64,000 nt of DNA from the IMG/VR virus record IMGVR_UViG_3300025101_002824, positions 32,001 through 96,000 of that record; one strand, given 5' to 3'. Positions 2,626-51,491 of this stretch are shown piece by piece. The notes below the pieces were generated by a model, which did no database searches, was not told where the DNA came from, and saw only the letters and a program-made list of their open reading frames with translations. This DNA is from a virus. Position numbers and translations under genes: made by a program. Each line of letters begins with the position of its first letter. Positions within the stretch are counted from its first letter, which is position 1.

Positions 2626-2812
2626 TTTGTCTATTTGTTTTTAGGAAATTAGTAACAACCTTGCTCCCCCATTTCATAACGGGGGTACACAAGGTCCAGG
2701 AGAAAGTAGGGGAGCCGCAGTGTAGGACCCAACTAAATTGCCATGCACACAATTTTTGTAATTACTGGATGTGCCATAATGTGTAGGGGGTTTGCTAGGA
2801 TTATTTTTTTTA

Positions 2813-2832
2813 TTTTTGTATATTGTAGTATA
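2813..2832 (+). promoter_or_regulatory. Putative phage late-promoter motif (TTTGTATATT class)
   Basis: TTTTTGTATATTGTAGTATA just upstream of ATG 2844; the same core precedes genes at 20926, 27239, 33344, 36400 and 48528. Confidence 0.5.
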
Positions 2833-2843
2833 CTATATTTATT

Positions 2844-5800: not shown

Positions 5801-8800
5801 TAAACTAAAAGAACAAAGTTTTTCAGATTTAGCAGTAACAAATCATGCATTTCAACCTCTATTAAATAATTTAGATGCTCGTATGATAGATGGTACACAA
5901 GGTTTTAGATCTAAATGGACCGGTATGGAAAGTTCTGATGGAGCAGATTTTGGATTATATAGATACCCAGATCTTTTACCTTCACAATTTAGTTACTTAC
6001 CAGGAGGCTTTACAGAATTTAAAGGAACTAGAATTACACCTACAAATTATTCTGTTTCTATGCCAAATTTATTAAAAAAACCATATTTAGATAGTCATCA
6101 TGATGGATTACATATATTAGATCCATTAGCTATGGGATGGGTAAGAGGATTTGTAGATGCTGAAAACCCAGGGTTATTTATACTTAAAGAATTACAGACA
6201 GATATAAATAAAGATCCTATGTTTGATTTTTTAAGTAATAAAAATCGTTCTGAATTATTAAAAATAAAACCTCAAGTTGAAAAAAGAAATGATAAATATT
6301 TTAGCAATTTAAATGATATAAATAATAAAATAAATAATATTCAACAAAGAAAAAATGAAATATTTGGACTAGATGAATTTGCTGATGAATATAATGCTTT
6401 AGATATACAACAACAAGAATTAGCAAGACTAGCTCAAACTGGTGAAAATCTTTACCCAACATCTAGAAGAATTATGGATAATTCTGATCTTAATTTAGAG
6501 AGTTTAATTCCAATGTCTAGAATAGGGTCTAAACCATATTACAGATTTGAAAATGAAACATTAAACTTTTTACAAAATTCAGGATTTAATAAAATTGTAA
6601 TACCAAATGCTACAAGTATAAGTAATATACAAGGATGGAATGCTATGGATGGTTTAACAAAAAGTCAAAAAGGTACATTAGGTTATTATAGCAACTTACA
6701 AAAAAATCCACAATTAATAAATACAGGTAATACATATGATTTAGATAATTATAGTGGTACTATATTTGATTTACAACGTAAATCTTATAATCCATTTAAA
6801 GAGTATGGTGGACAAACTGAAGGTTATGCTTTAGATGATACACCTGATGATATAAAATATAAAACAGGTGGTCAAACATTTACTATAAAAAAAGCTCAAA
6901 AAGGAAATGCAGAAGTTACTTTTAAAGATGAATATGAACAATTTGAAAACTTTATACAAGAAGAAGAAACAAGTTGGGATTATGTAAAAAATAAAGATTC
7001 AGCAGTATTAAAACCTGATGGCAAAACATATTATAAAGTATATGAAGATGGTAAGTTTTACCCATATTATCATCAAAATTCAAATGGTACATATGAATCA
7101 GAAGCTACAATAGGTTTTGGTAGAAAAGGAGCAGATATTTTTGATACATATAAATCAGGATTATCATTAGAAGATGCTGAATTATTTAGAAAAGAAGATA
7201 TAGATAACGCATTAAGAAAAACTAAAATTTTTATTGATGCTAATTATGGAGAAACTGCATATGATAATTTACCTGCTAGAACTAAATTTATGCTTGCAGA
7301 TTATACATATAATCTTGGTAAATTAAGTAAATATCCAAAATTTGCTGATGCTATTATGACTAATAATATTGATAAAGCATTAGCAGAATATATTAGAAAT
7401 GATGAAAAAGGTGGTTCACCATTAGCTAGAAATGAAGGATATTTAAATATGTATTTACAACCATGGATAAATAATATAAATGAAGAAGAATTAAAAAGAC
7501 AAGAAGCTAATTTAAAAATGATTCAAGAATTACAAAATCAAACTGTAATTCCAGCAGATAATACTATGATTGGTACAAATCCATTTGGTGGTTTTAAAGA
7601 TGGGGGTGAACTTTTTAAAGCTCAACCAGGTACAGAAGTTAATCTGGCTGAAACATATAAATATATACCATCAGAATTTCTTAATGTGCCAGAAGGAGAG
7701 TTTACATTTGATTATAAAAATAAAGATGGTAATGTAGAAACTAGAACAGGTGTTTATAATCCACAATGGTTTGAACAAGGGTTTGAAGATTCAGATGCTT
7801 ATAATGCTTTAAGTGATGATGAAAAAATAACCTTTGCTAATAATCCATATATAAATAATGAAGGTGATATGGTTCATCCTCTATTGTGGAATAAAGAAAC
7901 TTTAGAAAAAGAAAATAAAAAAAGATTTCTTCATGGATTATATCAAAAAATGTATACCAAACAAGATGATGGTAGTTACATTTTAAATCCAGAATATGAA
8001 ACTGCGCTAGGTGATGCTAGGTATCTTACTACAACAGATGTTCCATATTCAGAAATTCTAGATGATGGGGCATTTTCTAGTACATTAGCTGCTGATCCAA
8101 ATAATACAAGTTGGTATAGAGAATTAAAACCAGAGATTTTTACTGATGGTAAAACAACGACAGGATACACATGGGATAAAGATAGTCAAGAGTTTGTACG
8201 TACATCAAATATGACATATAAAGATTTGGTAAAACAGTACAAATACATTAAAAATATGCCTGGAATGGAAGGCATTTCTAAAAAAGAATATAAAAACAGA
8301 TTACAACAAGGAGATATATATTGGCCTCAACTTCAAAGTCCAGCACAAGAAGCACAGTTTCAAGAGCAATATAAATCAATAATGAATCCAATTAAAAAGG
8401 AAGATGTACAATTACAAAAAGATTTTTATGATAATGCTATAAGTGGAGATTTATATAAACAAAAATTAATTAATCAAGGTTATGAGAATGTTGATGAAAT
8501 TATAGACATGAGAAAAGATGCTTTAGCTAATTCTAAAGTAATGTATGATGCAGATTCTAATTCTTACAGAGATGAGGCTTATGATGATGATCCTAATTTA
8601 ATTAAAAAAATTCTTGATAAAGTAACTTTTTTAAATGATCAGTATAAAGATTCAGGTATAGATTATAATTATAAAGATGTATTTTTTGCAAATCCTTATT
8701 ATACAAGAATAGGTGAAGAAAGAACAGAAGCAGATCTAAATTATGACAGCAGAAAAATAAGAAATGAAGCTGAACCAAATATATTTACTGATGATCAATT

Positions 8801-22266: not shown

Positions 22267-23892
22267 ATGGCAACACCGGTTTTAAACAATGGTCTCTTTC
22301 TAAGAGACACGTCTTACCAGGCTAGTTCTCATATTGATTCATATCACTTAACACAAATGCTTGGTGATGCAGAGCCAATGGACATGGGTCCAGTGGAACT
22401 GTGGGCTATGACGCAAAAGGTAGAAATGCCTTTGTATCAAATGGCATCGTTTGGTGGTAAGAACACAATTATGGTGGACAATGCTAGAGGTGAGTACAAA
22501 TGGCAAACACCTGTTTCTCAGTCTCTTCCTATGTCAATGGGCATAAGTGGATTAACTGATGGAGACGGGAAAGATGGTGAACCTTTCAAAATCAGACTTT
22601 CTAAAAGAGAGTTTGGTCATGGGGACATCATTACTTATGATAAGTACAATGGTCTTGAACTTTACATTACTGCAGATGACATTGTCCCTGTAGGAGATGG
22701 ATGGGTTTATACTTGTACTTTAGTTAATAACGCTACTGGCACAGGTATTGAAACAAAATACTTTGCTGCTGGTACTAAATTCTTCAGAAAAGGTTCTGCA
22801 AGGGGTGAATACGGAGAAAGATTCTCTGATATTCAAACAGGAGCAGGATTCAGAGAATTCTACAACTTTGTTGGAGGAGCTGAAGCACACGTACATTATT
22901 CAGTTTCATCACGTGCTGATCTTATGATCAAAGGTGGTATGAATGCTGATGGTACTGTACCTGTAACTGAAATTTGGAGAAACTTTGACAAAAACCTAGA
23001 TCCTTCTTTAGATTCTATTGAGTCAATTGCAGGAGCAATGGGTAAAGATTACATTAAAAAAGCATTTGATAATGGTTCTCTTTCTAGAACGTTCTTAACG
23101 TCTCTTGAAGCAGCACACCTTACTAAAATTGCTAATGACATTGAATGTTATTTAATGTGGGGTCATGGTGGTAGAGTTAGACAAGACGGTCCAGATGACA
23201 TCAGACTTTCTGTTGGTCTTTGGAAGCAGTTAGATAACTCTTTCAAACGTGTATACAACAAATCTGCATTTAGCTTAGATATGTTCAAAAATGAACTATA
23301 TAACTTCTATGCTGGTAAAGTAGAATTTGATGGTCCAGATCCAAAGAGACAATTAGTTGTTCAAACTGGAATTGGAGGTATGCAATTAGTAAATGAAGCT
23401 ATTAGAGTTGAAGCTAATGGAACTTCAGCAGGTTTAGGTGCTGTTACAAACTTAGATAACATTGGTGCTATTACTGGATCTGGTATGGATTTAGGGTATG
23501 GATATGCATACACTAGCTTTATCATTCCTTTCTTAGCTAATGTTAAATTTGTATTGAATCCAGCATTTGATAACTTAAATACTAATGACATTGAAAATCC
23601 ATTAGTAGATGGTCGTCCATTATCTTCTTACAGCTTCATCATCTTTGATGTAACTGATGAAGGAAATGACAACATCTTCTTATTAAAGCTTTCTTGGGAT
23701 AATGCTCTTAAGTGGTTCTACCAAAATGGTACTATGGACTACATGGGAAGAACTCAAGGATTTGCTTCTTCAGGACACTTCAATGGTTATCGTGTAATGA
23801 TGACACAAACCATGCCTTCTGTTTGGGTAAAAGACCCAACTAAGGTATTAAAGATTGTTATGAGAAACCCAGTAACTGGAGGATCATTCTAA
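22267..23892 (+). CDS. Major capsid protein (crAss-like HK97 fold)
   Basis: 541 aa in the portal-scaffold-MCP position; bias to TTC/AAC/TAC codons suggests high expression; followed by a terminator. Confidence 0.85.
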   Translation: MATPVLNNGLFLRDTSYQASSHIDSYHLTQMLGDAEPMDMGPVELWAMTQKVEMPLYQMASFGGKNTIMVDNARGEYKWQTPVSQSLPMSMGISGLTDGDGKDGEPFKIRLSKREFGHGDIITYDKYNGLELYITADDIVPVGDGWVYTCTLVNNATGTGIETKYFAAGTKFFRKGSARGEYGERFSDIQTGAGFREFYNFVGGAEAHVHYSVSSRADLMIKGGMNADGTVPVTEIWRNFDKNLDPSLDSIESIAGAMGKDYIKKAFDNGSLSRTFLTSLEAAHLTKIANDIECYLMWGHGGRVRQDGPDDIRLSVGLWKQLDNSFKRVYNKSAFSLDMFKNELYNFYAGKVEFDGPDPKRQLVVQTGIGGMQLVNEAIRVEANGTSAGLGAVTNLDNIGAITGSGMDLGYGYAYTSFIIPFLANVKFVLNPAFDNLNTNDIENPLVDGRPLSSYSFIIFDVTDEGNDNIFLLKLSWDNALKWFYQNGTMDYMGRTQGFASSGHFNGYRVMMTQTMPSVWVKDPTKVLKIVMRNPVTGGSF

Positions 23893-36923: not shown

Positions 36924-37595
36924 ATGACAACAATAGGTGAAGCAATATCTAGAATACGTGGGCAAATAAAAGCAGGAAATCAAGATGCTTTTACAACTGA
37001 TAGATATATATACAGTTTAATAAAAAAGTACGCTCAACTATTTATGCGTAGACAAGATAATGCTAACAAACTTATGAAGTTTAATAGTGTTTGGCAACAA
37101 CTTAAATATGTAAAATTAATTGAAGTAGATAAAATAGAAGCTCAATGTGTTGGAATAGCAAGTGGATGTACTATAAAAAGAACTGAAAAAAAATTACCTA
37201 CATTTATGCAAGGTTATTGGGGACCGTTAATTAGAACAGTAAGTTCAATAGATGGAGGTATAGAAGTACAAGCTACTCAGCCAGGAACTTATGCTTCAAT
37301 GTCTAAAACAAAAACTTTTAAATATAATAATACAAAATACTTTTGGTTCTTAGATGGTTATTTGTATTTACCTAATGTTGCATGGGATGCTATAAAATTA
37401 GAAGGTGTTTTTGAAGAAGATATAGCAAAGTGGACATGTGAAACAGATGATGATTGTGTTCCTAGATATTTACAAAATCTTTATATACCTGAATTTTTGT
37501 TTTCTGAAATAGAAAATCAATTGTTGAATACTGCTTTTAATACAATGAAAGTTCCATCAGAAGATGGTAATAATAATAAAAATCCAAATAGATAA
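36924..37595 (+). CDS. Tail ring/tubular protein
   Basis: YFWFLDGYLY...IKLEGVFE pattern and gene order. Confidence 0.6.
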   Translation: MTTIGEAISRIRGQIKAGNQDAFTTDRYIYSLIKKYAQLFMRRQDNANKLMKFNSVWQQLKYVKLIEVDKIEAQCVGIASGCTIKRTEKKLPTFMQGYWGPLIRTVSSIDGGIEVQATQPGTYASMSKTKTFKYNNTKYFWFLDGYLYLPNVAWDAIKLEGVFEEDIAKWTCETDDDCVPRYLQNLYIPEFLFSEIENQLLNTAFNTMKVPSEDGNNNKNPNR

Positions 37596-38497
37596 TGAGC
37601 GTATCACATAAATATAGAACATTTGATGAACTTTTAGAATCAGTTAAAGTAGACTTTGCAACGTATGATCTAGAAGGAATGATAGAACCACAACAATTAA
37701 TTAAAGTTGCTATAAGAGTAAACTATGATTTAGGTTTAAGAATTAATAGAACTGATAACTGCATTGTTGATATAGAAAATAATAAAGGACAACTTCCATC
37801 AAATTTTAAAACATTAAATTTTGCTGCAATTTGCGGTAAGTATAGAGTAAATACAACTCAACCATCTGGAACAACTACTGAGACACAACCAGCAACATAT
37901 ACTCCAGAACCTGGATATACTGCACCATGTGAAGATGGACAAACATGTAAAGATGTATGTATTGTTAAACCATGTGAAAGAGATAGCTCTAAAGATTATA
38001 TGATAATTCAAAGAGTTGGACCATCTACATTTAGAGAATTTAGCACATTTATACCTTTAAGAATTACTGATACATCTAGTGCATATTGTACTACTGAGTG
38101 TCCTAACTTAGGTGTAACAGCTGTAGATTTTGCAGAACTTAAAGATGGTTTTATACTTACTAATTTTAAATCAGGTAAAGTATATTTAAGTTACCAAGCA
38201 ACATTAGAAGATGATGGAGGTAATCTTTTAACTCTTGATCATCCTTATTGTAATGAATATTATGAATATGCATTAAAATCAAGAATATTAGAAAACATGA
38301 TGTTTGCTGGAGAAAATGTTGCTAATCAATCTTCAATGATTGAACAAAGATTACGTGCTGCTAGAAATAATGCTTTAGGTTTTGTTAATACTCCAAACTT
38401 TGAAGAGTATAGAAAAATATGGGAAGTTAATAGAAAAGCACAGTACAATAAATATTATGATATGTTTTCAAGTTTTGCTACTAATAGAAGAAACTAA
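37595..38497 (+). CDS. Tail ring protein
   Basis: TNFKSGKVYLSY...LDHPY...YALK pattern; immediately before the muzzle gene. Confidence 0.6.
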   Translation: MSVSHKYRTFDELLESVKVDFATYDLEGMIEPQQLIKVAIRVNYDLGLRINRTDNCIVDIENNKGQLPSNFKTLNFAAICGKYRVNTTQPSGTTTETQPATYTPEPGYTAPCEDGQTCKDVCIVKPCERDSSKDYMIIQRVGPSTFREFSTFIPLRITDTSSAYCTTECPNLGVTAVDFAELKDGFILTNFKSGKVYLSYQATLEDDGGNLLTLDHPYCNEYYEYALKSRILENMMFAGENVANQSSMIEQRLRAARNNALGFVNTPNFEEYRKIWEVNRKAQYNKYYDMFSSFATNRRN

Positions 38498-38499
38498 AA

Positions 38500-41400
38500 A
38501 TGGCTAAAAAGCAGCAAAAAAATACAGGTGGGAAAAAAACTCCTAAACGTCAAAATACTGACATAGTAAATACTAATGCCTTTATTAAAGGTATGAATAA
38601 AGATACTGATAGTGGATATTTTGATAAACAAAGTTGGTATCATGCACGTAATTTAATAAATAATTCTGTTGATGGTGATTTAGGTGTAGTTGGTAATGAA
38701 CCAGCAAATTTAAGATGTGCAAAGATTCCTTATACTGTTATAGGAGGTATTCATTTATATGGAGACCAGTGGGTAATATACTCAACTAATGATATATTAA
38801 GTGAAATAGGTTTATTTGACGACAGTGAATGTAAATACACTACATTAGTAAATGATGATTGTCTTAATTTTAATAAAGATAATTTAATTATAGGAGCTGC
38901 TAAAGAAAATTTTGATTGCACATGGCAAGTATATTGGGATGATGGTTTAAATCCATCCAGAACATTAAATATTGATAATATACCATATGTGCAAATAGTT
39001 GATCCAAATACACCAGCTGGATCTACATGTATAAATTATATTAATGCTGAACCATTAATGTTAGATTGTGAAAGAATTAGATTAGCTCCATTAATTGATA
39101 TACCATGTATTAAATTAGAAAAAGCAGATCAAGGAGGATTATTAGAAAATGGTAGTTATCAAGTATATGCAGCATATTGTATAAATGAAAAACCTGTTAC
39201 AGATTATTTAGGTATTTCAAATATACAACCAATTTGGTCAAGAGAAGATACACAAGGATCACTTACAATAGAACTTTCTAATTTAGATACTGAATTTGAT
39301 CAATTACAAATTGTTGTTAGATCTAGAATAAAAGGTCAAGCTACTAATACAGTATTAGGTTTATATAGCACAGAAACAAAATCAATAAATATTGATTATA
39401 TAAATGCTGAATTACCAAAAGTATTATCAAGCACATTACAAAGAAGAATTCCTACATATGAAAAATCTGAAGGAATGTTTGTTGTTAATGATTATTTAAT
39501 AAGATCACAACCTACAGAACAATTTGATTTTAACTATCAACCTTTAGCTAATAATATCCAAACATACTGGACTTCTACACAATATCCTTCTAATTATTAT
39601 AGAGAAGGTGGTAACAAACCTACACTATTAAGAGATGAGCAATATGCTTTTTTTATAAGATTTATATATAATACAGGAGAAAAATCAGCATCATATCATA
39701 TACCTGGACGTGCTCCAACAGCTGCTGATGAATTACCTATTGGAGGTGCTGGTAATAATTTTGATAACTCACCAACATGGAGAGCAGGTAATACTGCATC
39801 TTCTCAACCTGGAAATCCTTTTGTAGCTTCATTACTTGGAACTAATACAGATGATGGTGGAACTATTATTGATGGAGGTCTAATGGGATTTTGGGAATCT
39901 ACAGAAGTTTATTCACCTACTGACCCAACTAGATATGGTAATCTTTGTGGTCAACCTATAAGACATCATAAAATTCCTGATGAAACTGTTCCTGGTATAG
40001 GGACTACATTAACAGGAGCTGGTGAAACCATTCATGTTATAGGTGCTGCTTTTGATAATATAGCACCTCCTGTTGATAATGATGGTAATGTAATACCTAA
40101 CATTATTGGATATGAAATATTAGTAGGTAGCCGAGCAGGTAATAGATCTATACTTGCTAAAGGTATTATGAAACACATGTTTAGGTTTAGAAGAACTCAA
40201 AATGATGGTATACGTAATGCTCAAGGATCACCAGATAATTTTGCTTCAGGAACAGGTTTAATGCCTAATTATCCTTTTAATGATTTAAGAGCAGATCCTT
40301 ATTTAATTGGTAGAGATAGTAATAGTATTAGCCAATTGCCTTGGTATGCACAATTTGGAACAGCACCAGAAGAAAATTGGCACAGAGGAAATACAAATCA
40401 AGCTGATGGTTTAGAATTTAATACTGTTGATGCACGGACATTTACTTTTCATTCACCAGAATTAAATTTCTCTAGATTATATTTAAATCCAACTACAGTA
40501 AAAATTTATAAAACAGTAAGTGGAATTGTTTTAGGAAGATTTAAAAAATCAGAAGAACATCCTAGAATGAAGTTATTAAAAAATAGAGCAGCAACTGTAG
40601 CAGCATTAGTTGGTGTAGGTTATGCTTTAGCAGAAATGCGTGGTAAAAGAAATTATAAGATTGATACCATGCAATCTACGTCTATTGGTGAATTTGGTGC
40701 ACATGCTTTAGGATCTGGTTCACATATGTCACCTTTTGTTGGTCCTGGTACAGGACTTGCTGCTGCAAATGTAGGTGCATCATCAGCAAGTATTTGGCTT
40801 GGAGCTGCAGCAGATGTAGGTTTTAATACTTTAGTTGATATAGGCGCTATATTTGGTGCTGGTAAAGTAGTTCGTCAAGTAGGTACACCTATTTATCAAC
40901 AAGTTGAAGTTGCGTCTACAGCTGCAGCAGCTGGACATATTGGTCCAAAAAGATCTATTCAATATATGGGTAGTGATTTTTCTTCTATTCCTTCATTAAT
41001 GTCTATTGCAATAGGTATTATTTCATTTTTAAATTATGTTGCAGTTGGTGGTGATAAAATTATTGATTTAATATTGAATCTTATAGGGTTTCAAAACTAT
41101 GCAATGAAATATATATCTCATGGATATTATCAAAATGAAACTCCATTTTTAGGTACACAATTTAGACAATCTGTAGATAGAGCAAGATATATTAAAAGTG
41201 CTATACAATCATTTGATGGTCAAGATGTAATATACAATAACCTTAGACCTTCTACTGTTGTATTTAAAGTGGCTAATCCATGGGGAGATTCTTTACCAGG
41301 AATTAATGGAGGGCCTATTGATAACACTAAATTTACAATTGGTGCAGGAGCAAATGGATGTGCAGGTAATGGTAATAATAGTATGAGTTGGTATAATCCA

Positions 41401-44400
41401 GGAGAGGAAGTAGAATCAACTGCAGTTGCACATTATATGTCATTTAAAACTTTAATGGATAATCAATATGGTCAGTTAGATAGTATTATTCAACTTACTA
41501 CACAAAATTGTTTTTATTTTAGAACACAACAAAATGTTGATCCTGATGGTAATATTCTTCCAATAATTTCACAAGATAGATTTAGTACTGATACAGTATA
41601 TGCGGGTGATTCATATATATGTAGATATACAGAAAAATCAATTATGCCATTCTTCTTTGACTTTTTAAAAGAAGGAAGAGATGGTATACCATTTGATTAT
41701 TCTAAATATGCAAATGTACCATTTCCTAGATTTTGGATGAATTCAGAAAAATTCCGTATGGATCAATTTGTAAGACCAATAACAAGTTTAAGGTTTAGAT
41801 GGAATGGAACTGAAGCTTTACCTTCTGGGTATTATAATATGGATTGTCCAGAAAATGGTGGTTATTGTGCACCTCAAGGTGTTTTTCAACCAGGTACAAT
41901 TGGTACAGGATTAGGTGCAAATTTTGGTGAAGGAGGAGCTGCTGGTTCAACACAACAAGATGGATCTTCTGCTGGTTCTGGTGCTATAAATCAAAATCAA
42001 ACTGGTTTTACACAAAGTTCAGCTGTAGGTGGTGCAGCTTGGGATGATCCTAATGATGATTGGAATCTAGAAAACAGTATGGCAGCATATAATAATAGGT
42101 TTCAAGTTATAAATATTAGTGGTAATGGTAATGGAGGTTCAGATATACCATATAATATTAACATGGGTAGTAATAGTGAAAGATGGTCAATAATTGGAGC
42201 AGGACAAGATGTTATAACAATAACACCTGCAGCTGGTGTACTAAATCCAGTCCCTACAAATCCAGCAAATCCGCCTGGACCAGCTTTAGCTGCAGCCGTA
42301 GAAACTACACCTAATTTTAATATAACCATAGAAGATCATAGTTACAGTGTACCTTTAGATTCTCCTGGTAATGGACCTTCTATTACTAAACAATGTGGTT
42401 GTGATTTTGTTAGTTTTGTTAGAGAAGATACAGATGATAGTACATTTACTCCTAGTTTATTTAGTGATTTTGGAACAGCAACAGCAAGATTAATTTGGGA
42501 TTGGTCATCTGGTACATTTATAGGTATGACAAATGTAGCAACTGGTTTTTATGCTTCTAATGACCCTACAATAACTGCAGGTGGTACAGGAAATCCAAGT
42601 GATGTTTTAACAAGTTCTGCAAATTTTACATTTCAAAGTGGACTTCTGACTAATCAAGTACAAGATGGTTTTCCATTTGTTTGTAACAATACAGCAATAA
42701 TGGGTCAAGGTGCATTTCAATTTCCTAATGCTCAAGCTACTCCAGGAGGTGCTAATGATATAAGTGCTGCTAATCAAAGAAATGGTGTACAAGCTGGTGG
42801 ACCAGGTGATCCTCAAGCTCTTGCTGATAATGCCGAACAAGCAGCACAAGATTCAGTATTTGTAACAGGTAATCAACCAGGAGCTGTAGGTGCTGGTGGT
42901 ACTGCTACTGGGGGATTATTTGTAATTAAAACAGGATATATGTATACCCATAATTGCGGTATAAATGATTTCTGGGTTGAATCTTCAATGAATCTAGCTT
43001 ATAGAGATTATGAAGATGTAGCAAGAAAACAACATTATGATGATGAAAATTTTACTGATCTTGTAGAATTATTTCATGCTAAAATTGTAAATTTAGATAA
43101 TTATTATTTTTATGATAGATCAACATCAGTTGATAAATTTTGGGGTTCATCATGGGGACGTATACAACCAAGTTATTATGATCCATTAATTGCAGAAAAC
43201 TGTTTTATTAAATATCCAAAAAGATTATTATACTCAGTTCCAGCTACAGGATTTAAAGATAAAGCAACGCTTTCAAATAAAAATGATGCAAAACAAGATT
43301 TTTGGAGAGTGTATCTTACAGAAAACTTTAGAGATTTTAAAGCAAAAGTTACAACAATAAAACCTATTAATGAGACAGGAGCTTTAATATTCTTTCCAAC
43401 AATGTCTCCTAAAATGTTCCAAGGACAAGATAGATTACAACTATCTAATACAAAACTTACAATTGGTGATGGAGGATTATTTAGTCAAGCTTTTCAAAAT
43501 ATAACAAACTCTGATGTATCACACGAGTATGGATCATGTGAAAGTGCAAGAAGTGTATTAAATACTCCTTTTGGTATTTTCTTTGTATCTCAAGCACAAG
43601 GTAAGATTTTTCAATATAGACCAGGTGGTGGTTTAACACCAATATCAGATCAAGGTATGAAATGGTGGATGAATAAATTTTTACCATCTAAGCTATTAGA
43701 ATACTTTCCTTTAATAGAAGATTGTCCTGAAGCAGTAGACAATCCTGTAAATGGTGCAGGTATACAAACTGTATATGATCCTAATAATGACATAGTATAT
43801 TTCTGTAAAAAAGATTTTATACCATTACCGCAATTTCAAGATAATGATTGTATAGAATATATACCTTGTGAAGGTTTTGTTTATAATGCAACAAATTGTG
43901 AAGGTTTACCACAAGTACCTTCATGTCCTGAAGGATATACATTAATACAAGATCCTGTAACAGGGCAAGATGTTTGTCAATTATTATATACTGAAGAACC
44001 AATTATATTAGCTACAGAACAATTTAATTATGGTGCAGGTATTGCTATTGGTACTGACTTAGGATTTGGTAATAATGGAACAGCAAGATATGGTGTAGAT
44101 TGGCCTATTGTAATTGATGATGTATTTACTGATGGAATGCCTACTAACCAAGCTGATCCAAATACATGGCATTATATAACAGATAATGGATCAAATGCAT
44201 GGTGGAGAAATGCAAATCCAACTAATGGAACAAATGGTATTATTAACAGATTAATGAGAGGAGCTGCTGGTACACCAGGGGGACAATTTGCACAAGCAGA
44301 ATTTCAAATTAATATTCCTACTGCTAAAACTGTACATATTTTATTAGCAGCTGATAATGCGTTTGCATTAGATTTAGATACTGGAACAGGATATACAAAT

Positions 44401-46920
44401 TTTGTAACACCTGTTGATGCAACTATATTTGGTGCTGTAACTCAGGGTGGTGGTATATGGAATCCTCAAGCAGTTCCAGGAGGAAATTTTGCATGGTTAT
44501 CAGGTGATGCAGTTGATGCATCTCAATATTCAAAAGCTTGGATATATAAATTAGATTTACCATCAGGATGTACAAAATTTAGAATGACAGGTACTAACAA
44601 TGGTGCTGGTTTTGCAGGTCTTGCTGCTGCTGTTATTGATGTTAATGATTATCAAGATATACAAGATGCTACATCATGGGAATCTTTACCTAAATTATGG
44701 GATTCTGAAACTTATGATTTTATTGTTCCTGGAACTACTACTGATTTTAGATGTCCTCCAAACTTTACAATATTTACTGACGGTACAGATGGTAGTACAG
44801 AAGAGTGTCCAGTATGTAGAGAAGATATAATAATATATAATTGTGATTGTATGACAGATCCAACATCTAATATACCAGGTGTATTAATAGGAACATGTCC
44901 AGATGCATTTGGTAATGCTGGATCATCTTATTGTCAATACGAAGGATATGCTGATGTTGAAATGATTGATCAAACTTATCCTATAGAAGTATTAGATACT
45001 AATTACTTTAAAGATATATCTTGGACTATTAGTTATGATCCAAAAACTAAAGCATGGTTATCTTTCCATGATTGGCATCCTAAGTTAGCATTTAATAGTA
45101 TAAGACATTTCTTAACTACTAATACTGAAATGACAGAAGTTCCTCAATGTCCAGATGGATATACATGGAATGGTACAAGATGTTGTTTATCATTACATCA
45201 TGAAGAGTTAGCAGAAGTTAATGTAACTGAATTTTTATCTACAGTTGAAAGTACACCAGCAACTGTACAAGCATTTTCTGAAACAATGGATATTGTTATT
45301 GTAATAGATTTTTCAACATCTATGAGAAACAATGGTGGAATTGGAGCAGCAATGCAATTTGTATCAACATTTGTAAGCGGTATGGCTCCAGGTATGTTAG
45401 GAGGTCCATATGCAGGTCAAGTAAGAATAGGACATGGTAGATGGGGTAGTGGTTCTGCATCTGCGTCTCCTCCAGGAGATCCTGCACAAATAGTAGGTTT
45501 AACTGATGATCCAGCTATAGCTGGTGGAAGTCTTACTGCTACTAATACTCCAATAGGTCAAACACAATATTGGCCACAAAGTGGAACAACCTTTAATGAT
45601 GGTATAGATCTTGCTAATACTATGCTTACAGGAAGTACAGCTCAACAAAAAATTGTTATATTTGTTACTGATGCAGGTAGTGCTCCAAATAATCCAACAA
45701 ATTTAGCAAATGCTACACAATTAATAGCATTATTTGTTGATAATGCAACTAGTGCAAATAATTGTAGTACTACTACTGGTTATGGTGATGATCTTGGACC
45801 TTTAATTACAGATACAGGTTTACCATCAAATCCGGCATATGATGTTGTAAGATGCGCAAATGTTGGAACTCTTCCAAGAAACGTATATCATATAGGGTCA
45901 GGTATTGATCCTGGTGAAGAAGGACATGCAGCTTCAGTTGCACAAGATTTAGTTCAATCTTTTACACAATGTACATGTACACAAGGAATAATTGATACAA
46001 GTCCTCTTAATCCTCCATGTTTACCTTTACCATCACCTCCACCACAATGTATAACTTGTTCTTGTCCTCCAGGATTTACTTTAATTGGTACTTGTGATAA
46101 TTCACAAAATCCACCAATATGTAGAAAAATGGATTGTGAATGTACAAGTCCTTTATTTAATCCAGATGAAGACTTAACAATAAGTGGAGAATGTGATGAT
46201 ATTGTACAATATTTTAATCCATTAACTGGAACAGGTAATCCAACTTATGTAAATACTAATCCTTTATTTTGTATATATGATTATGAAGATTGTGTACCTG
46301 CTAATTATGAATTAGGATTCTTTTGGAAACATAATATTAGAACTGATTTATTTAATAATTATTATGATAAAAATTATCCTTGGGAAGTAGATATAATTGA
46401 AACTACTGGTCAGCAAGTTACTACATTAAGAAGTATAGAATATCAAATGGAAGCTTATTTATATCAAAATGAAGGTAAAGATAGATTCCATGATTTAGAT
46501 TATAATTTTGATGAAGCTGTTATTTATAATTCAGAACAAGTATCAGGATTATTAGAATTAGAATTAGAACCAAAAAATAATGTTCAATTGTCAATGTTAT
46601 ATCCTATTGTTGGACCTAACAGTATAAGAACATTGTTTAGTAAAGTTGAACAAAAATATAGATTTAATCAATTTTTTGATATTACTGCTGACAGAGGAGA
46701 GTTTACAGCAGCAACTAATACAATTTGGGAAACAGATTGGGATGGATATGTTAGAACATTAAACCCAGCTAATTTAAATTATAATAAAGCACAACATCAA
46801 AGAAAGAAATTTAGACATTACTTTAATCATGTGCTATTAAGAAAATCAGATGAAGCTGCTACAACTAGAAAGATGTTATTAAAATTAGAGAATACTAAAT
46901 TAAATGTATCATTTAGATAA
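38500..46920 (+). CDS. Muzzle/tail stabilisation protein (P22 gp10-like) with large insertions including a VWA domain
   Basis: FIKGMNKD N-terminus, EYGSCES, ISDQGMKWW and WTISYDPKTKAWLSFHDW core motifs; DIVIVIDFSTSM MIDAS motif at 45307. Confidence 0.75.
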   Translation: MAKKQQKNTGGKKTPKRQNTDIVNTNAFIKGMNKDTDSGYFDKQSWYHARNLINNSVDGDLGVVGNEPANLRCAKIPYTVIGGIHLYGDQWVIYSTNDILSEIGLFDDSECKYTTLVNDDCLNFNKDNLIIGAAKENFDCTWQVYWDDGLNPSRTLNIDNIPYVQIVDPNTPAGSTCINYINAEPLMLDCERIRLAPLIDIPCIKLEKADQGGLLENGSYQVYAAYCINEKPVTDYLGISNIQPIWSREDTQGSLTIELSNLDTEFDQLQIVVRSRIKGQATNTVLGLYSTETKSINIDYINAELPKVLSSTLQRRIPTYEKSEGMFVVNDYLIRSQPTEQFDFNYQPLANNIQTYWTSTQYPSNYYREGGNKPTLLRDEQYAFFIRFIYNTGEKSASYHIPGRAPTAADELPIGGAGNNFDNSPTWRAGNTASSQPGNPFVASLLGTNTDDGGTIIDGGLMGFWESTEVYSPTDPTRYGNLCGQPIRHHKIPDETVPGIGTTLTGAGETIHVIGAAFDNIAPPVDNDGNVIPNIIGYEILVGSRAGNRSILAKGIMKHMFRFRRTQNDGIRNAQGSPDNFASGTGLMPNYPFNDLRADPYLIGRDSNSISQLPWYAQFGTAPEENWHRGNTNQADGLEFNTVDARTFTFHSPELNFSRLYLNPTTVKIYKTVSGIVLGRFKKSEEHPRMKLLKNRAATVAALVGVGYALAEMRGKRNYKIDTMQSTSIGEFGAHALGSGSHMSPFVGPGTGLAAANVGASSASIWLGAAADVGFNTLVDIGAIFGAGKVVRQVGTPIYQQVEVASTAAAAGHIGPKRSIQYMGSDFSSIPSLMSIAIGIISFLNYVAVGGDKIIDLILNLIGFQNYAMKYISHGYYQNETPFLGTQFRQSVDRARYIKSAIQSFDGQDVIYNNLRPSTVVFKVANPWGDSLPGINGGPIDNTKFTIGAGANGCAGNGNNSMSWYNPGEEVESTAVAHYMSFKTLMDNQYGQLDSIIQLTTQNCFYFRTQQNVDPDGNILPIISQDRFSTDTVYAGDSYICRYTEKSIMPFFFDFLKEGRDGIPFDYSKYANVPFPRFWMNSEKFRMDQFVRPITSLRFRWNGTEALPSGYYNMDCPENGGYCAPQGVFQPGTIGTGLGANFGEGGAAGSTQQDGSSAGSGAINQNQTGFTQSSAVGGAAWDDPNDDWNLENSMAAYNNRFQVINISGNGNGGSDIPYNINMGSNSERWSIIGAGQDVITITPAAGVLNPVPTNPANPPGPALAAAVETTPNFNITIEDHSYSVPLDSPGNGPSITKQCGCDFVSFVREDTDDSTFTPSLFSDFGTATARLIWDWSSGTFIGMTNVATGFYASNDPTITAGGTGNPSDVLTSSANFTFQSGLLTNQVQDGFPFVCNNTAIMGQGAFQFPNAQATPGGANDISAANQRNGVQAGGPGDPQALADNAEQAAQDSVFVTGNQPGAVGAGGTATGGLFVIKTGYMYTHNCGINDFWVESSMNLAYRDYEDVARKQHYDDENFTDLVELFHAKIVNLDNYYFYDRSTSVDKFWGSSWGRIQPSYYDPLIAENCFIKYPKRLLYSVPATGFKDKATLSNKNDAKQDFWRVYLTENFRDFKAKVTTIKPINETGALIFFPTMSPKMFQGQDRLQLSNTKLTIGDGGLFSQAFQNITNSDVSHEYGSCESARSVLNTPFGIFFVSQAQGKIFQYRPGGGLTPISDQGMKWWMNKFLPSKLLEYFPLIEDCPEAVDNPVNGAGIQTVYDPNNDIVYFCKKDFIPLPQFQDNDCIEYIPCEGFVYNATNCEGLPQVPSCPEGYTLIQDPVTGQDVCQLLYTEEPIILATEQFNYGAGIAIGTDLGFGNNGTARYGVDWPIVIDDVFTDGMPTNQADPNTWHYITDNGSNAWWRNANPTNGTNGIINRLMRGAAGTPGGQFAQAEFQINIPTAKTVHILLAADNAFALDLDTGTGYTNFVTPVDATIFGAVTQGGGIWNPQAVPGGNFAWLSGDAVDASQYSKAWIYKLDLPSGCTKFRMTGTNNGAGFAGLAAAVIDVNDYQDIQDATSWESLPKLWDSETYDFIVPGTTTDFRCPPNFTIFTDGTDGSTEECPVCREDIIIYNCDCMTDPTSNIPGVLIGTCPDAFGNAGSSYCQYEGYADVEMIDQTYPIEVLDTNYFKDISWTISYDPKTKAWLSFHDWHPKLAFNSIRHFLTTNTEMTEVPQCPDGYTWNGTRCCLSLHHEELAEVNVTEFLSTVESTPATVQAFSETMDIVIVIDFSTSMRNNGGIGAAMQFVSTFVSGMAPGMLGGPYAGQVRIGHGRWGSGSASASPPGDPAQIVGLTDDPAIAGGSLTATNTPIGQTQYWPQSGTTFNDGIDLANTMLTGSTAQQKIVIFVTDAGSAPNNPTNLANATQLIALFVDNATSANNCSTTTGYGDDLGPLITDTGLPSNPAYDVVRCANVGTLPRNVYHIGSGIDPGEEGHAASVAQDLVQSFTQCTCTQGIIDTSPLNPPCLPLPSPPPQCITCSCPPGFTLIGTCDNSQNPPICRKMDCECTSPLFNPDEDLTISGECDDIVQYFNPLTGTGNPTYVNTNPLFCIYDYEDCVPANYELGFFWKHNIRTDLFNNYYDKNYPWEVDIIETTGQQVTTLRSIEYQMEAYLYQNEGKDRFHDLDYNFDEAVIYNSEQVSGLLELELEPKNNVQLSMLYPIVGPNSIRTLFSKVEQKYRFNQFFDITADRGEFTAATNTIWETDWDGYVRTLNPANLNYNKAQHQRKKFRHYFNHVLLRKSDEAATTRKMLLKLENTKLNVSFR

Positions 46921-48461
46921 TGAAATATAGCAAGGACGGATATAAAAGAAATAGCAAGGATAAGAATAATCCTTATAATATAATACCATCAGGTAATATA
47001 ACTATGGAGGATGTAGATTTTCCTGTACTTGGTATGGATAACTTAGGTAATAGTAAAGTTATGATGCCAGGTGCTAATTATACATTTCCTGGCAATTCTG
47101 TTTTTGAAATACCAATGTTTTCTAATGGTGGACCTAAAAAAAATAAATATGGTCTTACATATAATCTTTTAAAAAGTTATATTGATAGAGGAAAATTAAA
47201 TTATGGTCTTATAAAACAACATCCTAGATTACTTATTCCTAGTACTATAAGAAATCAATATGATTTATATAAGTATATGAATACTGCAGATATGCGTGGT
47301 ATTACTGGTAGAAATCTTATAGACAATGTTACAATACCTATTCAAAAAGGCAGTAGTTTAATTCAGCATAGAGGTTTAAAAAATTCTTCTGAAATAGATG
47401 AATCTATGGAAAAGATATTAGCAGATTATACAATTAATTCTGCTCCTTTTAAATTTAGTTCATTTGATGGAAAATCAGGATATGTGCCTCAAGGTGGTTT
47501 TCCAATGGTAAATACAGGAGATACTAGACCTTTTTTTATACAAGATGATTCATATGCAAAACTATTAGATGACTATTTAAAAAATAATAATATTAGTTGG
47601 AAAAGTTTAGATAGAGATAAACCTATAGAATTAAATAGAGCATTTGGAACATTTGATGTTACAAGTTCTTCTGGCGGAAGTTTACAAGATTATATAGATA
47701 GATTAAAATCAGGAGAAGTTTTTAGTTTAGGAGATATAACATCTTGGTCAATTGGTAAACCTTTACCACAATTTGGTAGTCAGAGATTTTTAATTAAAAA
47801 TTTTCCAACTAATAGAAATGCGTTTGTAAATAGACCTGATTTAAATAAATTTTTAACTAGAAATCAAAAACAATCATTTGTTGAAACAGAATTATTATTA
47901 CCAAGTGATACAAAATTTAAAGTAACTAATTTAATTAAAAAGTCACCAAGACAGCCTCTTGAATATAAAAAAGATAGCAAAGGTTTAATTTATGATCCAG
48001 TACCACAATGGGGAACAGATATTGAATTAGAAGTACAAAAAAAAGGTGGTGAAAAAAAATCTAAATATGTTAAATCTCCTTTTACAAAAGGAAAATTATC
48101 TTTAGCAAATACAGATGGTTTAATAAATAAAATGATTAATCAGGGTATTTTTAAATCTGAATTTGCAATGGGAGGACAGTTAAAATTAAATAATGGATAT
48201 ACAGTAAAAAAACATTTTGATAAATTAAAAGACATACCTTATATATCATATACAAAACAACCTGATATAGAAGGAAGAGTATACTATGATTCAGATAGCA
48301 CAGATGTTTTAGATGATTTTAACATTATAGATGTTGAATCAAATTTAATTAAAAAACAAAGAAAACATAAAAGAACTAAAGATATAATATTAAAATATAA
48401 AAACGGAAATAATCTTACACAAACAGAAAAAGCACATTTAAACTCATTAGGGTTATTGTAG
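46920..48461 (+). CDS. Putative virion protein with an R-S-E ADP-ribosyltransferase domain
   Basis: LNRAFG (R 47637), ITSWS (S 47742), ETELLLP...FKV (E-x-E 47883-47891); TAATG-coupled to the muzzle gene. Confidence 0.65.
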   Translation: MKYSKDGYKRNSKDKNNPYNIIPSGNITMEDVDFPVLGMDNLGNSKVMMPGANYTFPGNSVFEIPMFSNGGPKKNKYGLTYNLLKSYIDRGKLNYGLIKQHPRLLIPSTIRNQYDLYKYMNTADMRGITGRNLIDNVTIPIQKGSSLIQHRGLKNSSEIDESMEKILADYTINSAPFKFSSFDGKSGYVPQGGFPMVNTGDTRPFFIQDDSYAKLLDDYLKNNNISWKSLDRDKPIELNRAFGTFDVTSSSGGSLQDYIDRLKSGEVFSLGDITSWSIGKPLPQFGSQRFLIKNFPTNRNAFVNRPDLNKFLTRNQKQSFVETELLLPSDTKFKVTNLIKKSPRQPLEYKKDSKGLIYDPVPQWGTDIELEVQKKGGEKKSKYVKSPFTKGKLSLANTDGLINKMINQGIFKSEFAMGGQLKLNNGYTVKKHFDKLKDIPYISYTKQPDIEGRVYYDSDSTDVLDDFNIIDVESNLIKKQRKHKRTKDIILKYKNGNNLTQTEKAHLNSLGLL

Positions 48462-48527: not shown

Positions 48528-51491
48528 ATGAAAAGAAATAAAAAAAATAATCAAAAACAAACTTTTGACGTTTATCCAATGTTATCTGATTATCAATATG
48601 TTACAGGTATACCTATGATGCAAAATGGATCTGAATTTTTTAGCTATGATGACTACATGACTGATTTAGTATTGGCAAATACTGGTACAGAAACACCTAC
48701 ACCTTTTATTCCTAAATATAACATAGATAATAATTATACTCAAACAGGTGATATAGAATATGGTATACCAAAGTCAATAAGTACAGCTAATCCATTATTA
48801 AATCTTGCTAGTAGTTTAACTAAATTTAAAAATCTTGGTACAGATTTTAAAAATGCACTTGGAAATATAAATCCTAGAACAGGTTTACCTTTTAAAAAAT
48901 CTGACTTTGCAAGAACTACACTTACTAATACAACAGATGAAAATGTAATATTAGATGGAGAGGGTTTTAAAAATTTATATGATAAATCAGGAAATATAAA
49001 TCAAGATGCAAATACTGCTGAAAATTTGTTTATGACTCAAGATGAAGCTAAACAAAAATACTTTAATACATTAGCAAAACAACATTCAGAAACATATCTT
49101 GATAATGATGGAAATTCATTATTAAGTAAACAAGTAATGAATGATGATGGAACTATTTCTTATGCTGATATTACAAAACCTAATCCTAACTATGATCCTT
49201 CAAAACCAGAAGGACCTGGTAATGAAAAAACTATAACAGTCCCTTTTACAGATGCTGATAAAACTGCAGGTGATATAGCACAAGAAAATGTAAAAGATAT
49301 TAATGTACAAAGTTTGTTATATAACGATGACTTAACTGAAGTTACTAAATTATCAAGAGTAACAAATACAGGTGAAAAAGAAATAGCAGATTATGATGCA
49401 GATAAAATAGCAACAGAAGGAACATATAATTTTAATGTGCAAGAAAATATTGGTCAAGATCCAATTGATGATAGATATTTAATGGCTGGAGGAAGTTTTC
49501 CAAGAAATAATCTTTCTGCTTTTGTATATGGAGGAGAAGAAATACCTGAAGCACAGTTTGGAAAAAGTAATTTTAGAAACTATACATTAAGAGATCCTAA
49601 TTTTACTATAGGAACTAAAACTATAGCTCCAATAAACAGAATAACAAGAAACTTACCATTTGGTGCTGTTGATAAAGGTGTTCAACAAGGATACGGATTT
49701 AATGCTAATATACCTCTTGTTTCAAGTCAATTACTTAAAACACCAACTTCACAATTAGTTGGTAATATAAATATAGGCACAAATGCATATAGAACACCAG
49801 GTAGTGAAAGATATGCTACAAAATATGTAGATTCAGATATGGACATTATGATGGAAAATGCACCTTTACATTTACAAAATGTACAATCTGCATATGGTGC
49901 ATATCAAGATTATTCTGCTCCTTATATGACTAATGTAGGTCAACGTATTGGTATTGGTGGTGATTATACTTATTCACCAAGAGGGCTTGGTAGAGATCTT
50001 GCTATTGATTTAGGTGCTGATCTTGGATTAAATTATAGTAGAGGTGAGCTTGGCTCTGACTTTGCATATGTAGATAAATTTGAAAATTTTCATGGTTTAG
50101 AAAATGATGCAGCTATAAATATTTTTGACTCAGTAACACCTGAAATTGAAGGTAATTTATTTGGAGTTGATGCAGGAGCATACGCAGGTTTAAGAAATCA
50201 AAATACAGGACTTTCAGGAGGTATATATGGTAATTATGGTACAATGAGAACAATAAATCCAGGTATGCGTTTAGGTTTTAAAGGTAATATACCATTAATT
50301 AGAGGAAAGGGTAATATGCGTGGATTTAATATTTCAGCTAGTCCAGATATAAGTTATGATTTTCAATCAAACACACCTAGATATGGTTTTGGAATTAGTG
50401 CAGGATTTGAAGATGGAGGAGAAAATTTACAAAAATATCAAGGTGATGTAGGTCCAAGTGAAACAAATAAAGAGACATATATATTTAATGGTCAACAAGT
50501 TACTGAAGAAGAGTTTAATAGATTATCTAAAGAAAGTCAAAATGATTTTAATGAATTTAGAAATAATACTAATTCTGAAAGACAAAATTTTATGAACCAA
50601 ACACCATTTACCTCTTCACAAAATAATGAAGGGGTTGGTTCAGGCCCTACTAATCCAGGTGCTACAACTTCTGGACAATCAGTAAATCCTGTTGTAACTG
50701 CTCCTTCTATGAATGAAATTGCTGGTGGTACTCCATTAGATTTAGATTTACCAACTCCAGATTATATGAATCCTCTTGGAATGAATCAAGAAATACCAAC
50801 TAATCCTAATCAAGTTGATACATATGAAGTAAGTACTGAAGGTACACCTGTTGATAATACTGATATACCAGTTGTAGAACCAGAAGGACCAGCTGCTCCT
50901 GTAGAAATGAGTTTTAGTCAACCTGATCTTACTGATGAGCAAAAGGCTAATATGACTGAAGCAGAAATAAAAGCTTATGAAAGAAAACAAAAATTAGATT
51001 CAGCATATAATGAAGGTAATGCATTTATGAATACAGGTTTTGTAGGAACAGCTAAAAGAGTATTTGGAGAAGCTGCTAAAGCTGCTACAATGGGTGCAGA
51101 TTCAATAAATTATTTTGCAGGCTATGGTGACATGTTAAAAAATGAATTAGAAACAGATAATGAACAAGATGAAATAGGTGATTTTGTTAATCCTATTGAA
51201 GCTAGTAGAGGTGATAAAGGTGATTATGGTGTAAACTCAGGAGCGTATAGAGTTAATAGTTTAGGTTATGGTGATGGACCTAGAGGTCAAATTGCACAAA
51301 TGGGTACAGAAACAAATGGTATGCCTAAGCCAGATTATAGTTCGTTACAACAATTTTTAAATCAAACTATAGTTTCTTATGATCCTAAATTTTTAATGAT
51401 GCAGGCAAAAAATGGTGAAGAGATTATAGATGCAGACATGGAACTAATTAAACAACTAATGGCAGCGGGGGCTGACTTTGAAATAATGTAG
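48528..51491 (+). CDS. Putative cargo protein with an internal outer-membrane beta-barrel-like module
   Basis: Alternating amphipathic strands RIGIGGDYTY, LGADLGLNY, FGVDAGAYAG, LSGGIYGNYG and RYGFGISAGF, flanked by GG linkers. Confidence 0.6.
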   Translation: MKRNKKNNQKQTFDVYPMLSDYQYVTGIPMMQNGSEFFSYDDYMTDLVLANTGTETPTPFIPKYNIDNNYTQTGDIEYGIPKSISTANPLLNLASSLTKFKNLGTDFKNALGNINPRTGLPFKKSDFARTTLTNTTDENVILDGEGFKNLYDKSGNINQDANTAENLFMTQDEAKQKYFNTLAKQHSETYLDNDGNSLLSKQVMNDDGTISYADITKPNPNYDPSKPEGPGNEKTITVPFTDADKTAGDIAQENVKDINVQSLLYNDDLTEVTKLSRVTNTGEKEIADYDADKIATEGTYNFNVQENIGQDPIDDRYLMAGGSFPRNNLSAFVYGGEEIPEAQFGKSNFRNYTLRDPNFTIGTKTIAPINRITRNLPFGAVDKGVQQGYGFNANIPLVSSQLLKTPTSQLVGNINIGTNAYRTPGSERYATKYVDSDMDIMMENAPLHLQNVQSAYGAYQDYSAPYMTNVGQRIGIGGDYTYSPRGLGRDLAIDLGADLGLNYSRGELGSDFAYVDKFENFHGLENDAAINIFDSVTPEIEGNLFGVDAGAYAGLRNQNTGLSGGIYGNYGTMRTINPGMRLGFKGNIPLIRGKGNMRGFNISASPDISYDFQSNTPRYGFGISAGFEDGGENLQKYQGDVGPSETNKETYIFNGQQVTEEEFNRLSKESQNDFNEFRNNTNSERQNFMNQTPFTSSQNNEGVGSGPTNPGATTSGQSVNPVVTAPSMNEIAGGTPLDLDLPTPDYMNPLGMNQEIPTNPNQVDTYEVSTEGTPVDNTDIPVVEPEGPAAPVEMSFSQPDLTDEQKANMTEAEIKAYERKQKLDSAYNEGNAFMNTGFVGTAKRVFGEAAKAATMGADSINYFAGYGDMLKNELETDNEQDEIGDFVNPIEASRGDKGDYGVNSGAYRVNSLGYGDGPRGQIAQMGTETNGMPKPDYSSLQQFLNQTIVSYDPKFLMMQAKNGEEIIDADMELIKQLMAAGADFEIM

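Follow-up and report, generated by a model that had tools for sequence, protein, structure and literature searches.

Crassviruses are among the most abundant phages known, and how they breach the outer membrane of their hosts is still a matter of proposal. To our knowledge, breach of that membrane by short-tailed phages is known only for helical ejection proteins, namely T7 gp14, P22 gp7 and DEV gp73. These three proteins are carried in the virion without a Sec signal and are delivered from outside, and they have been either proposed or shown to insert in the outer membrane of the host as infection begins (PMC10925440). They are small and consist of hydrophobic alpha-helices, and DEV gp73 forms a nonameric channel approximately 25 Å wide, into which DNA fits (PMC10925440). 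For the crAss-like phage crAss001, the proteins encoded after the muzzle gene, including the cargo proteins gp45 and gp46, were detected in virions by mass spectrometry (PMC10172136, Bayfield et al. 2023). The authors of that study expect gp45 and gp46 to form a transmembrane (trans-envelope) channel, think that gp45 is ejected first (N-terminus leading and partly unfolded), interpret gp45 as a single chain that extends through tail and capsid, and describe the other cargo proteins as predicted to be alpha-helical (PMC10172136). In a different setting, that of contact-dependent inhibition, CdiA has a beta-rich FHA-2 domain whose assembly into proteoliposomes containing BamA proceeds without BamA gating and is aided by SurA and Skp (PMC13625785). 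Here we describe a protein of 987 residues encoded in a 64,000-nucleotide stretch of viral DNA (bases 32001-96000 of IMG/VR virus record IMGVR_UViG_3300025101_002824, a record of 114,084 bp estimated to be 99 % complete; this whole stretch is referred to below as the window). Between two linkers containing a Gly-Gly (GG) pair, the protein carries a module predicted to fold as a beta-barrel of outer-membrane type, which may serve to anchor the chain in the envelope of the host during infection.

The open reading frame (ORF) and the parts of the barrel module are as follows (members of the protein family are designated by P numbers, the protein itself being P0001).

48528..51491, plus strand: P0001, the 987-residue modular protein with the barrel, cargo-type by its position (ORF list and translation)
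49527..49562, plus strand: upstream linker YGGEEIPEAQFG, residues 334-345 (motif scan; the equivalent in the P0022/23 clade is GGDVLPKAQRGNG)
49599..50408, plus strand: predicted outer-membrane-type barrel module of 10-12 strands, residues 358-627 (AlphaFold2 (AF2), VIA-align and Foldseek)
49794..49928, plus strand: long loop 1 between strands 4 and 5, residues 423-467, located opposite the chain ends, with low predicted local distance difference test (pLDDT) scores and predicted short helices
50040..50159, plus strand: long loop 2 between strands 6 and 7, residues 505-544, on the same side as loop 1 (pLDDT <50)
50379..50408, plus strand: last barrel strand RYGFGISAGF, residues 618-627, with alternating hydrophobic residues (Y619, F621, I623, A625 and F627)
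50406..50447, plus strand: downstream linker FEDGGENLQKYQGD, residues 627-640 (motif scan; the equivalent in the P0022/23/24/29 clade is KQGGSLPKAQ)

An initial annotation, made from the letters of the sequence, had proposed an outer-membrane protein (OMP)-type barrel without a signal peptide at nucleotides 49563-50408, which correspond to residues 346-627, and had quoted nine peptides in which Gly and aromatic residues alternate. All nine are present in the plus-strand ORF, within residues 389-627 and at the places claimed: in addition to the last strand listed above, these are YGFNANIPL (389-397), LVGNINIG (410-417), RIGIGGDYTY (473-482), IDLGADLGLNY (493-503), FGVDAGAYAG (545-554), LSGGIYGNYG (562-571), LGFKGNIPL (582-590) and FNISASPDISY (600-610). 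The absence of a signal peptide was likewise borne out. The N-terminus (MKRNKKNNQKQT...) is basic and hydrophilic, and neither a signal peptide nor a transmembrane helix was found anywhere in the protein, for which the highest Kyte-Doolittle mean over 19 residues is only 0.69. Both Cys and Trp are absent from the chain (approximately 110 kDa in all), in which the barrel begins at about residue 358 and is followed by some 360 further residues.

The Gly/aromatic alternation exceeds what chance would produce. In a crude count over the 29 large ORFs of the window, the density of dyad segments was highest in this 282-residue stretch, at 15 versus 12 or fewer elsewhere. One face of the predicted strands is composed of 13 Ile, 11 Leu, 9 Ala, 8 Phe and 7 Tyr residues; the other contains 28 % Gly and comprises 20 Gly, 12 Asn, 7 Ser, 6 Asp, 4 Thr, 4 Arg and 3 Lys, with no Glu at all. 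This register is kept in the homologues P0013, P0023 and P0029 (approximately 36-51 % identity), with 66-82 % hydrophobic residues on the apolar face and 9-17 % on the polar face. Insertions and deletions between clades are confined to the connections between strands, the two largest being on the loop side. Tyr and Phe are placed at strand ends with aliphatic residues between them (F600...Y610, Y619/F621...F627 and L491...Y503), a layout that corresponds to the aromatic girdle of OMPs. A Gly-rich, Glu-free face would be suited to the lining of a small outer-membrane barrel and would be out of place on the outside of a soluble one. Judged by these features of its sequence, the module is probably a barrel of membrane type.

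The structure of the module was predicted with AF2 for residues 320-636, using an alignment of 10 rows. The resulting model (predicted TM-score (pTM) 0.59, mean pLDDT 61, with block means of approximately 70-89 over most strands and low values in the loops) comprises eleven strands arranged up-and-down as consecutive hairpins: strands 1-6 at residues 358-366, 372-382, 386-404, 408-422, 468-482 and 491-504, and strands 7-11 at residues 545-557, 563-571, 579-592, 600-611 and 616-627. A second AF2 run, on the whole protein and with a different alignment of 21 rows, gave a mean pLDDT of 43 and placed ten strands at the same positions. Loop 1 is nearly unchanged in P0013, which is 51 % identical, and is deleted from the P0022/23/24 clade; this conserved insert is possibly a plug or a binding surface. 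Loop 2 is deleted in P0022/23/24 and shortened in P0013.

Structural comparisons of both models returned membrane barrels. Foldseek matched the module model against the PDB only to outer-membrane barrels (FadL, OmpG, PagL, OMPLA, OpcA and a designed transmembrane barrel), with E values of 1.4e-5 to 1e-3 and low TM-scores (0.2-0.3 by query). In a VIA-align search of 48,161 representative PDB chains, the top match of the module model was the designed transmembrane barrel TMB10_163 (Z 12.6, root-mean-square deviation (rmsd) 3.2 Å, 143/143 residues aligned), together with Dot/Icm porin I (Z 11.8), OpcA (11.6), the barrels of AIDA-I, BrkA, NalP and EstA (10-11), and FapF, KdgM, OmpT and NanC (approximately 10-11). 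With the full-length model, all 50 of the VIA-align matches listed were membrane barrels, including BrkA (Z 12.0), EspP (11.7), OmpG (11.6) and NalP (11.4), and Foldseek gave a weaker list that again contained membrane barrels only. In BFVD, the proteins matched came from phage records and carried annotations as porin, OMP beta-barrel or autotransporter beta-domain. For P0036, a distant homologue (approximately 36 % identical in the module), the ESM Atlas model matched over residues 45-262, with TM-scores of 0.52-0.71 by query, to clusters annotated OMP_b-brl (0.59-0.62), Porin_4, OmpA_membrane, DUF481 and PorP/SprF. An ESM Atlas feature search reached only chance-level values of 0.75-0.80 (attacin, gloverin, porin and inverse autotransporter). 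Neither a beta-sandwich nor a beta-helix, the folds that the initial annotation had set against a barrel, appeared in the two AF2 runs or among the matches of the P0036 model. The predicted structure is a closed, antiparallel, up-and-down barrel of at least eight strands, as is characteristic of the OMP fold, and we consider it very probable from these models that the module does adopt a closed beta-barrel fold.

According to the initial annotation, the last strand would be a beta-signal of the kind recognised by BamA, which cleavage at the adjoining linker would expose as a near-canonical C-terminus. F627 is in fact both the last residue of RYGFGISAGF and the first of FEDGG (627-631), and the strand comes close to the OMP consensus, with alternating hydrophobic residues, Gly at -6 and a G-x-x-A-x-F that is present but internal, 360 residues following it. 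What stands is a pattern general to terminal strands, with F or L as its last residue at the linker. The terminal aromatic residue is not conserved, being replaced by Leu in three of seven close homologues and throughout the P0022/23/24/29 clade, and the P0022/23/24 clade has N or S in place of the Gly at -6. Of the hallmarks of OMPs, neither a Sec signal peptide nor an aromatic beta-signal at the C-terminus is present in the 987-residue protein, and dependence on BamA is unsupported. P0013 has an apparent end (...GLNYTF) of textbook form, N-x-G-x-x-Y-x-F, followed by KNK only; because it seems to stop three residues past its YTF, the module appears to end at the residue equivalent to F627.

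Nothing indicates cleavage at the linker, and the argument that the near-canonical C-terminus left by such cleavage independently supports a processing model is circular. In inverse autotransporters of the intimin type the last barrel strand is internal, yet they are assembled normally, and so a free C-terminus would not be required. Tags of similar form are found in crAss001 gp45 (L087, 11988-14516), in which aromatic-x-x-GG tags (GG at 209-210 and 427-428) coincide with or shortly precede the starts of the two segments resolved by cryo-electron microscopy (214-245 and 425-552), and the next tags, at 263 and 562, come shortly past the segment ends. Because these tags edge segments of what is read as one chain, GG tags look like module borders or hinges. 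Superinfection exclusion, a function that the initial annotation had offered beside that of an ejection channel, was rejected as unlikely, since it would need export from the producing cell and the export signal is absent.

The family to which the protein belongs is tiny and modular. An exhaustive profile search identified 27 related proteins among 1.84 billion representatives, its remote matches mostly covering profile positions 1-300. Marine metagenomes, Tara among them, supplied six homologues with 66-85 % identity. Relatives were found only in metagenomic or virome records, and wherever their gene context was examined, it was that of a crAss-like phage block. A word-indexed search and scans of IMG/VR and JGI metagenomes returned only close relatives, and P0013 was not found in IMG/VR. 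The whole protein had no match in Pfam or PHROGs, the family profile had none in a PDB sequence search (E up to 10), and tblastn against 50,697 phage records found none. A search of ten family members against Pfam for informative alternative middle modules returned none, and a literature search on the linker motif LPKAQ yielded nothing relevant.

Full-length relatives have in common a basic leader, a short C-terminal motif and linkers of the form GG-x-LPKAQ-x-G between modules. The corresponding parts of P0001 outside the barrel are listed here.

48528..48578, plus strand: basic N-terminal leader MKRNKKNNQKQTFDVYP, common to the family and kept as MxRKKKNKxxQTFxVYP, barrel-less relatives included
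48948..49412, plus strand: folded N-terminal domain, residues 141-295 (block-mean pLDDT 66-88 in the full-length AF2 model)
51462..51488, plus strand: C-terminal end AAGADFEIM (AGAD[IF]E[IM]x in all full-length relatives, including barrel-less ones and the L007 protein)

Within this framework the barrel module behaves as a cassette, occurring in at least four protein contexts: that of P0001; that of P0022/23/35/40, in which it is joined to a different N-terminal part; that of P0036, in which it stands right behind a 32-residue leader and linker; and that of P0013 (298 residues, longest contig 1685 bp), which is essentially the module alone. In the fused forms, linkers flank the module on both sides. 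It is missing from P0009, P0011, P0016, P0017, P0021, P0031, P0032 and the L007 protein, and was absent among the loci retrieved with P0023. In the close relatives that carry it, no other part is as well conserved as the module: its identity is 78-91 %, compared with 52-54 % for the N-terminal part in four of five full-length relatives (84 % in the closest) and 65-82 % for the C-terminal part. Residues 141-295 are the family's most widely shared part, including in members without the barrel; no family match was found for them, and the fold searches with the full-length model were filled by barrel matches and hardly probed this domain. The C-terminal ...L(I/M)AAGAD(I/F)E(I/M)x is kept in every full-length relative, even where the remainder is unrelated, and is a candidate packaging or docking signal. 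The idea that the barrel stands in for a transmembrane helix was rejected, because most barrel-less members also lack a clear transmembrane helix. As a separate observation, a segment of approximately 45 residues (GGEFKPHMMYDP...EDHLRM...GY.H; P0023 residues 826-871), near the C-terminus of the P0022/23 chassis, has counterparts with 50-80 % identity in over 70 IMG/VR contigs (loci L010-L086), and is far more widespread than any other part of the P0022/23 proteins.

The gene content of the window (approximately 30 % G+C) is that of a marine crAss-like phage, as judged from the following genes.

22267-23892, plus strand: crassvirus major capsid protein (Pfam Crass_capsid)
36924-37595, plus strand: tail ring protein 2 (Pfam CrAss_Ring_2, 3.6e-19)
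37595-38497, plus strand: ring protein 1 (Pfam CrAss_Ring_1, 2.9e-07)
38500-46920, plus strand: muzzle protein of 2806 residues (Pfam crAss_MUZ, 1e-28)
46920..48461, plus strand: gene of 513 residues between the muzzle gene and the barrel-protein gene, a variable slot with no Pfam family

The ORFs downstream of the muzzle gene encode 513, 987 (the barrel protein), 1111, 1141 and >1892 residues. The barrel-protein gene thus lies after the ring and muzzle genes and on the same strand, which is the position of the Crassvirales C1 cargo gene. In crAss001 the order is gp44 (the muzzle), gp45, gp46 and gp47, with the RNA-polymerase-associated proteins after the cargo genes; because the crAss001 genes that follow the muzzle encode the virion cargo gp45 and gp46, the 987-residue protein is cargo-type by position, and its delivery in the virion is plausible by analogy of gene order. 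The slot immediately upstream holds a 1573-residue ORF (2292-7013) in L003, a phage related at 78 %; in L007, the analogous block has a 1358-residue ORF (4739-8815) there, which contains PG_binding_1 and PG_binding_3 domains. Just ahead of the cargo-chassis gene, the slot seems to be a place for exchangeable effectors.

Linkers of the barrel-protein type also occur at the operon's other end relative to this gene, in an unrelated protein of 2737 residues (ORF 2844-11057), as YGGSLPKLQ and YGGSLPKAQ at 4245-4271 and 9408-9434. This protein contains a zincin-like HExxH motif (HELGH) at 9024-9038, residue 2061, approximately 130 residues before the second linker, and no Pfam family was found for it. 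A second barrel in the same ORF was considered and rejected, its dyad-rich stretch being the zincin-like region, and blastp identified no second barrel among the other large proteins of the window.

The explanation we favour, at a probability of roughly 0.55, is that the module belongs to an ejected cargo protein and serves it as an anchor or port that inserts in the outer membrane. The 987-residue protein would probably lie extended or partly unfolded within the virion, and its chain would be extruded unfolded through the tail upon opening of the muzzle. The linker-bounded cassette (approximately residues 358-627) would fold autonomously at the host envelope into a barrel of 10-12 strands and insert in the host outer membrane, where it would anchor the extruded chain and could help to open or buttress an entry port. 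The flanking modules might work on either side of the membrane, with the GG linkers as flexible module borders, and several copies around the tail axis could help to open the port. A barrel this narrow would hold at most an extended polypeptide, in the manner of an autotransporter, which excludes conduction of double-stranded DNA. A more specific version, in which a Sec-independent, virion-carried cassette of OMP type is shuffled between cargo proteins, inserts from outside or by way of hijacked OMP-assembly factors, and makes or anchors the entry port, we put forward only tentatively, at somewhat less than even odds.

A number of points weigh against an outer-membrane anchor or port. Spontaneous insertion through the lipopolysaccharide (LPS) leaflet is hard, and a barrel of 10-12 strands is too narrow for DNA. 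We infer the presence of the protein in the virion from synteny alone, and it shows no detectable homology to gp45 (hhalign of A1 against gp45, probability 0.3 %; no match by blastp). Most relatives with the same N- and C-termini are without the barrel and have no obvious substitute hydrophobic helix, so the module cannot be essential to the core job of the family. The protein contains no Trp, though Trp is often found in the aromatic girdles of OMPs, and the alignments behind the models, whose mean pLDDT values are 61 (module) and 43 (whole protein), are shallow (10 and 21 rows) and hold few independent lineages. The remaining points are those that would also be accommodated by a closed barrel that never enters a membrane, whether as a docking or packing domain in capsid or tail (like the portal-bound domain of gp45) or as a barrel that binds lipid or LPS and turns its apolar face inward. 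Soluble ten-strand barrels match the module model in VIA-align (nitrobindin at Z 9.8, Rv2717c at 9.7, CpeS at 9.5 and LolA at 7-7.7); gp45 itself has a compact portal-bound domain edged by GG tags; no Pfam OMP family was found for the module, P0013, P0024 or P0023 by hmmscan (E up to 10; no profile-profile comparison was run), and PF13568 is absent from the whole 114-kb record; and the outward orientation of the apolar face is read from its composition. Outer-membrane barrels nevertheless score higher than these soluble proteins in the same search, and are the sole class in both Foldseek lists, in the full-length VIA-align list and among the structure matches of the P0036 Atlas model. A surface with 28 % Gly plus Asn, Ser and Asp and without Glu would be unusual for the exposed strands of a soluble protein, and strands with Tyr and Phe at their ends and aliphatic residues in the middle fit a membrane belt. 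We therefore regard a soluble or virion-internal barrel as unlikely.

Two further alternatives appear considerably less probable still. The full model of the initial annotation holds that a cut at the GG linker frees a C-terminal Phe beta-signal and that the host beta-barrel assembly machinery (BAM) assembles the barrel from the periplasm. Such a route would be consistent with the alternating last strand, its Gly at -6 and Phe at -1, with the apparent end of P0013 (N-x-G-x-x-Y-x-F plus three residues), with termini on the short-turn side as in normal OMPs, with the HELGH motif in the phage's giant ORF 2844-11057, and with the help that SurA and Skp give to CdiA delivery (PMC13625785). It is set back by the lack of any sign of cleavage, by the terminal Leu of many homologues and the loss of the -6 Gly in P0022/23/24, by the normal assembly of inverse autotransporters with an internal last strand, by the equivalent GG tags that edge segments of a gp45 chain read as continuous (PMC10172136), and by the reconstitution of CdiA, in which BamA gating was not needed (PMC13625785). 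We attach just as little weight to the idea that the module is not a single-chain barrel at all, and would instead contribute to an oligomeric pore of many copies or form an open sheet as for CdiA FHA-2, with AF2 producing a closed barrel by default. A channel wider than one small barrel is needed for DNA, the TM-scores from Foldseek are 0.2-0.3 by query, the strand count differs between the AF2 runs (11 versus 10), and the alignments are shallow, with a pTM of 0.59 and mean pLDDT values of 49 to 61 for the five module models. Against this, closed barrels are matched by the models of both AF2 runs and, for the distant homologue P0036, by that of the Atlas, the match to TMB10 extends across the whole 143-residue target at 3.2 Å rmsd, and five consecutive hairpins with short turns are typical of single-chain barrels.

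A cargo or ejection protein with a barrel cassette of OMP type would be new, helical ejection proteins being already known. If the anchor or port reading is correct, a beta-barrel would for the first time be known as part of a phage ejectosome, OMP insertion from the outside would have a natural example, and a barrel that inserts itself in this way would be of interest for membrane-protein folding and for nanopore work. An OMP-like cassette of approximately 280 residues, bounded by linkers and without an export signal, offers a concrete test object for two questions: whether a barrel of OMP type can fold into a membrane when delivered unfolded from outside, and whether BAM, SurA or Skp is needed for this, as the CdiA work suggests for another system of delivery from outside. 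The cassette-like spread of the module also shows that phage cargo proteins are assembled module by module.

In comparison with known systems, the 987-residue protein resembles the C1 protein of crAss001 (gp45) in the place of its gene, which follows the ring and muzzle genes and precedes those for large proteins, in its basic N-terminus and in the aromatic-x-x-GG tags at its module borders. It differs from gp45, beyond the lack of homology, in carrying a barrel module in place of the Gly-rich transmembrane helix predicted there (residues 140-158, Kyte-Doolittle 1.73, versus a maximum of 0.69 here). Unlike the ejection proteins of podoviruses, the candidate element is a predicted single-chain barrel of 10-12 strands within a multidomain protein of approximately 110 kDa, too narrow for DNA. 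Its best structural matches, at Z 10-12, are OpcA and OmpT (10 strands) and BrkA, NalP, EspP, AIDA-I, KdgM and NanC (12 strands), and it resembles small outer-membrane barrels in its dyad strands, aromatic strand ends, long loops on the side opposite to the short turns and the two termini, and a last strand in which hydrophobic residues alternate and F or L comes last; it is unlike them in having no signal peptide and in being placed approximately 350 residues into the chain with approximately 360 behind it. To the beta-domains of autotransporters (BrkA, NalP, EspP, Hbp and AIDA-I) the match is again Z 10-12, with 10-12 strands predicted, no match in Pfam and no lumen segment confidently predicted. 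With CdiA FHA-2 the module would have in common that a beta domain, part of a very large protein, comes from outside the cell and associates stably with the outer membrane, so that the downstream chain can reach the periplasm (PMC13625785). FHA-2 differs in its predicted structure, an extended sheet that prolongs a beta-helix in place of a small closed barrel, in its delivery by a bacterial neighbour, and in having no sequence relation to the module; it is nonetheless the closest precedent for insertion of a beta domain from the outside in.

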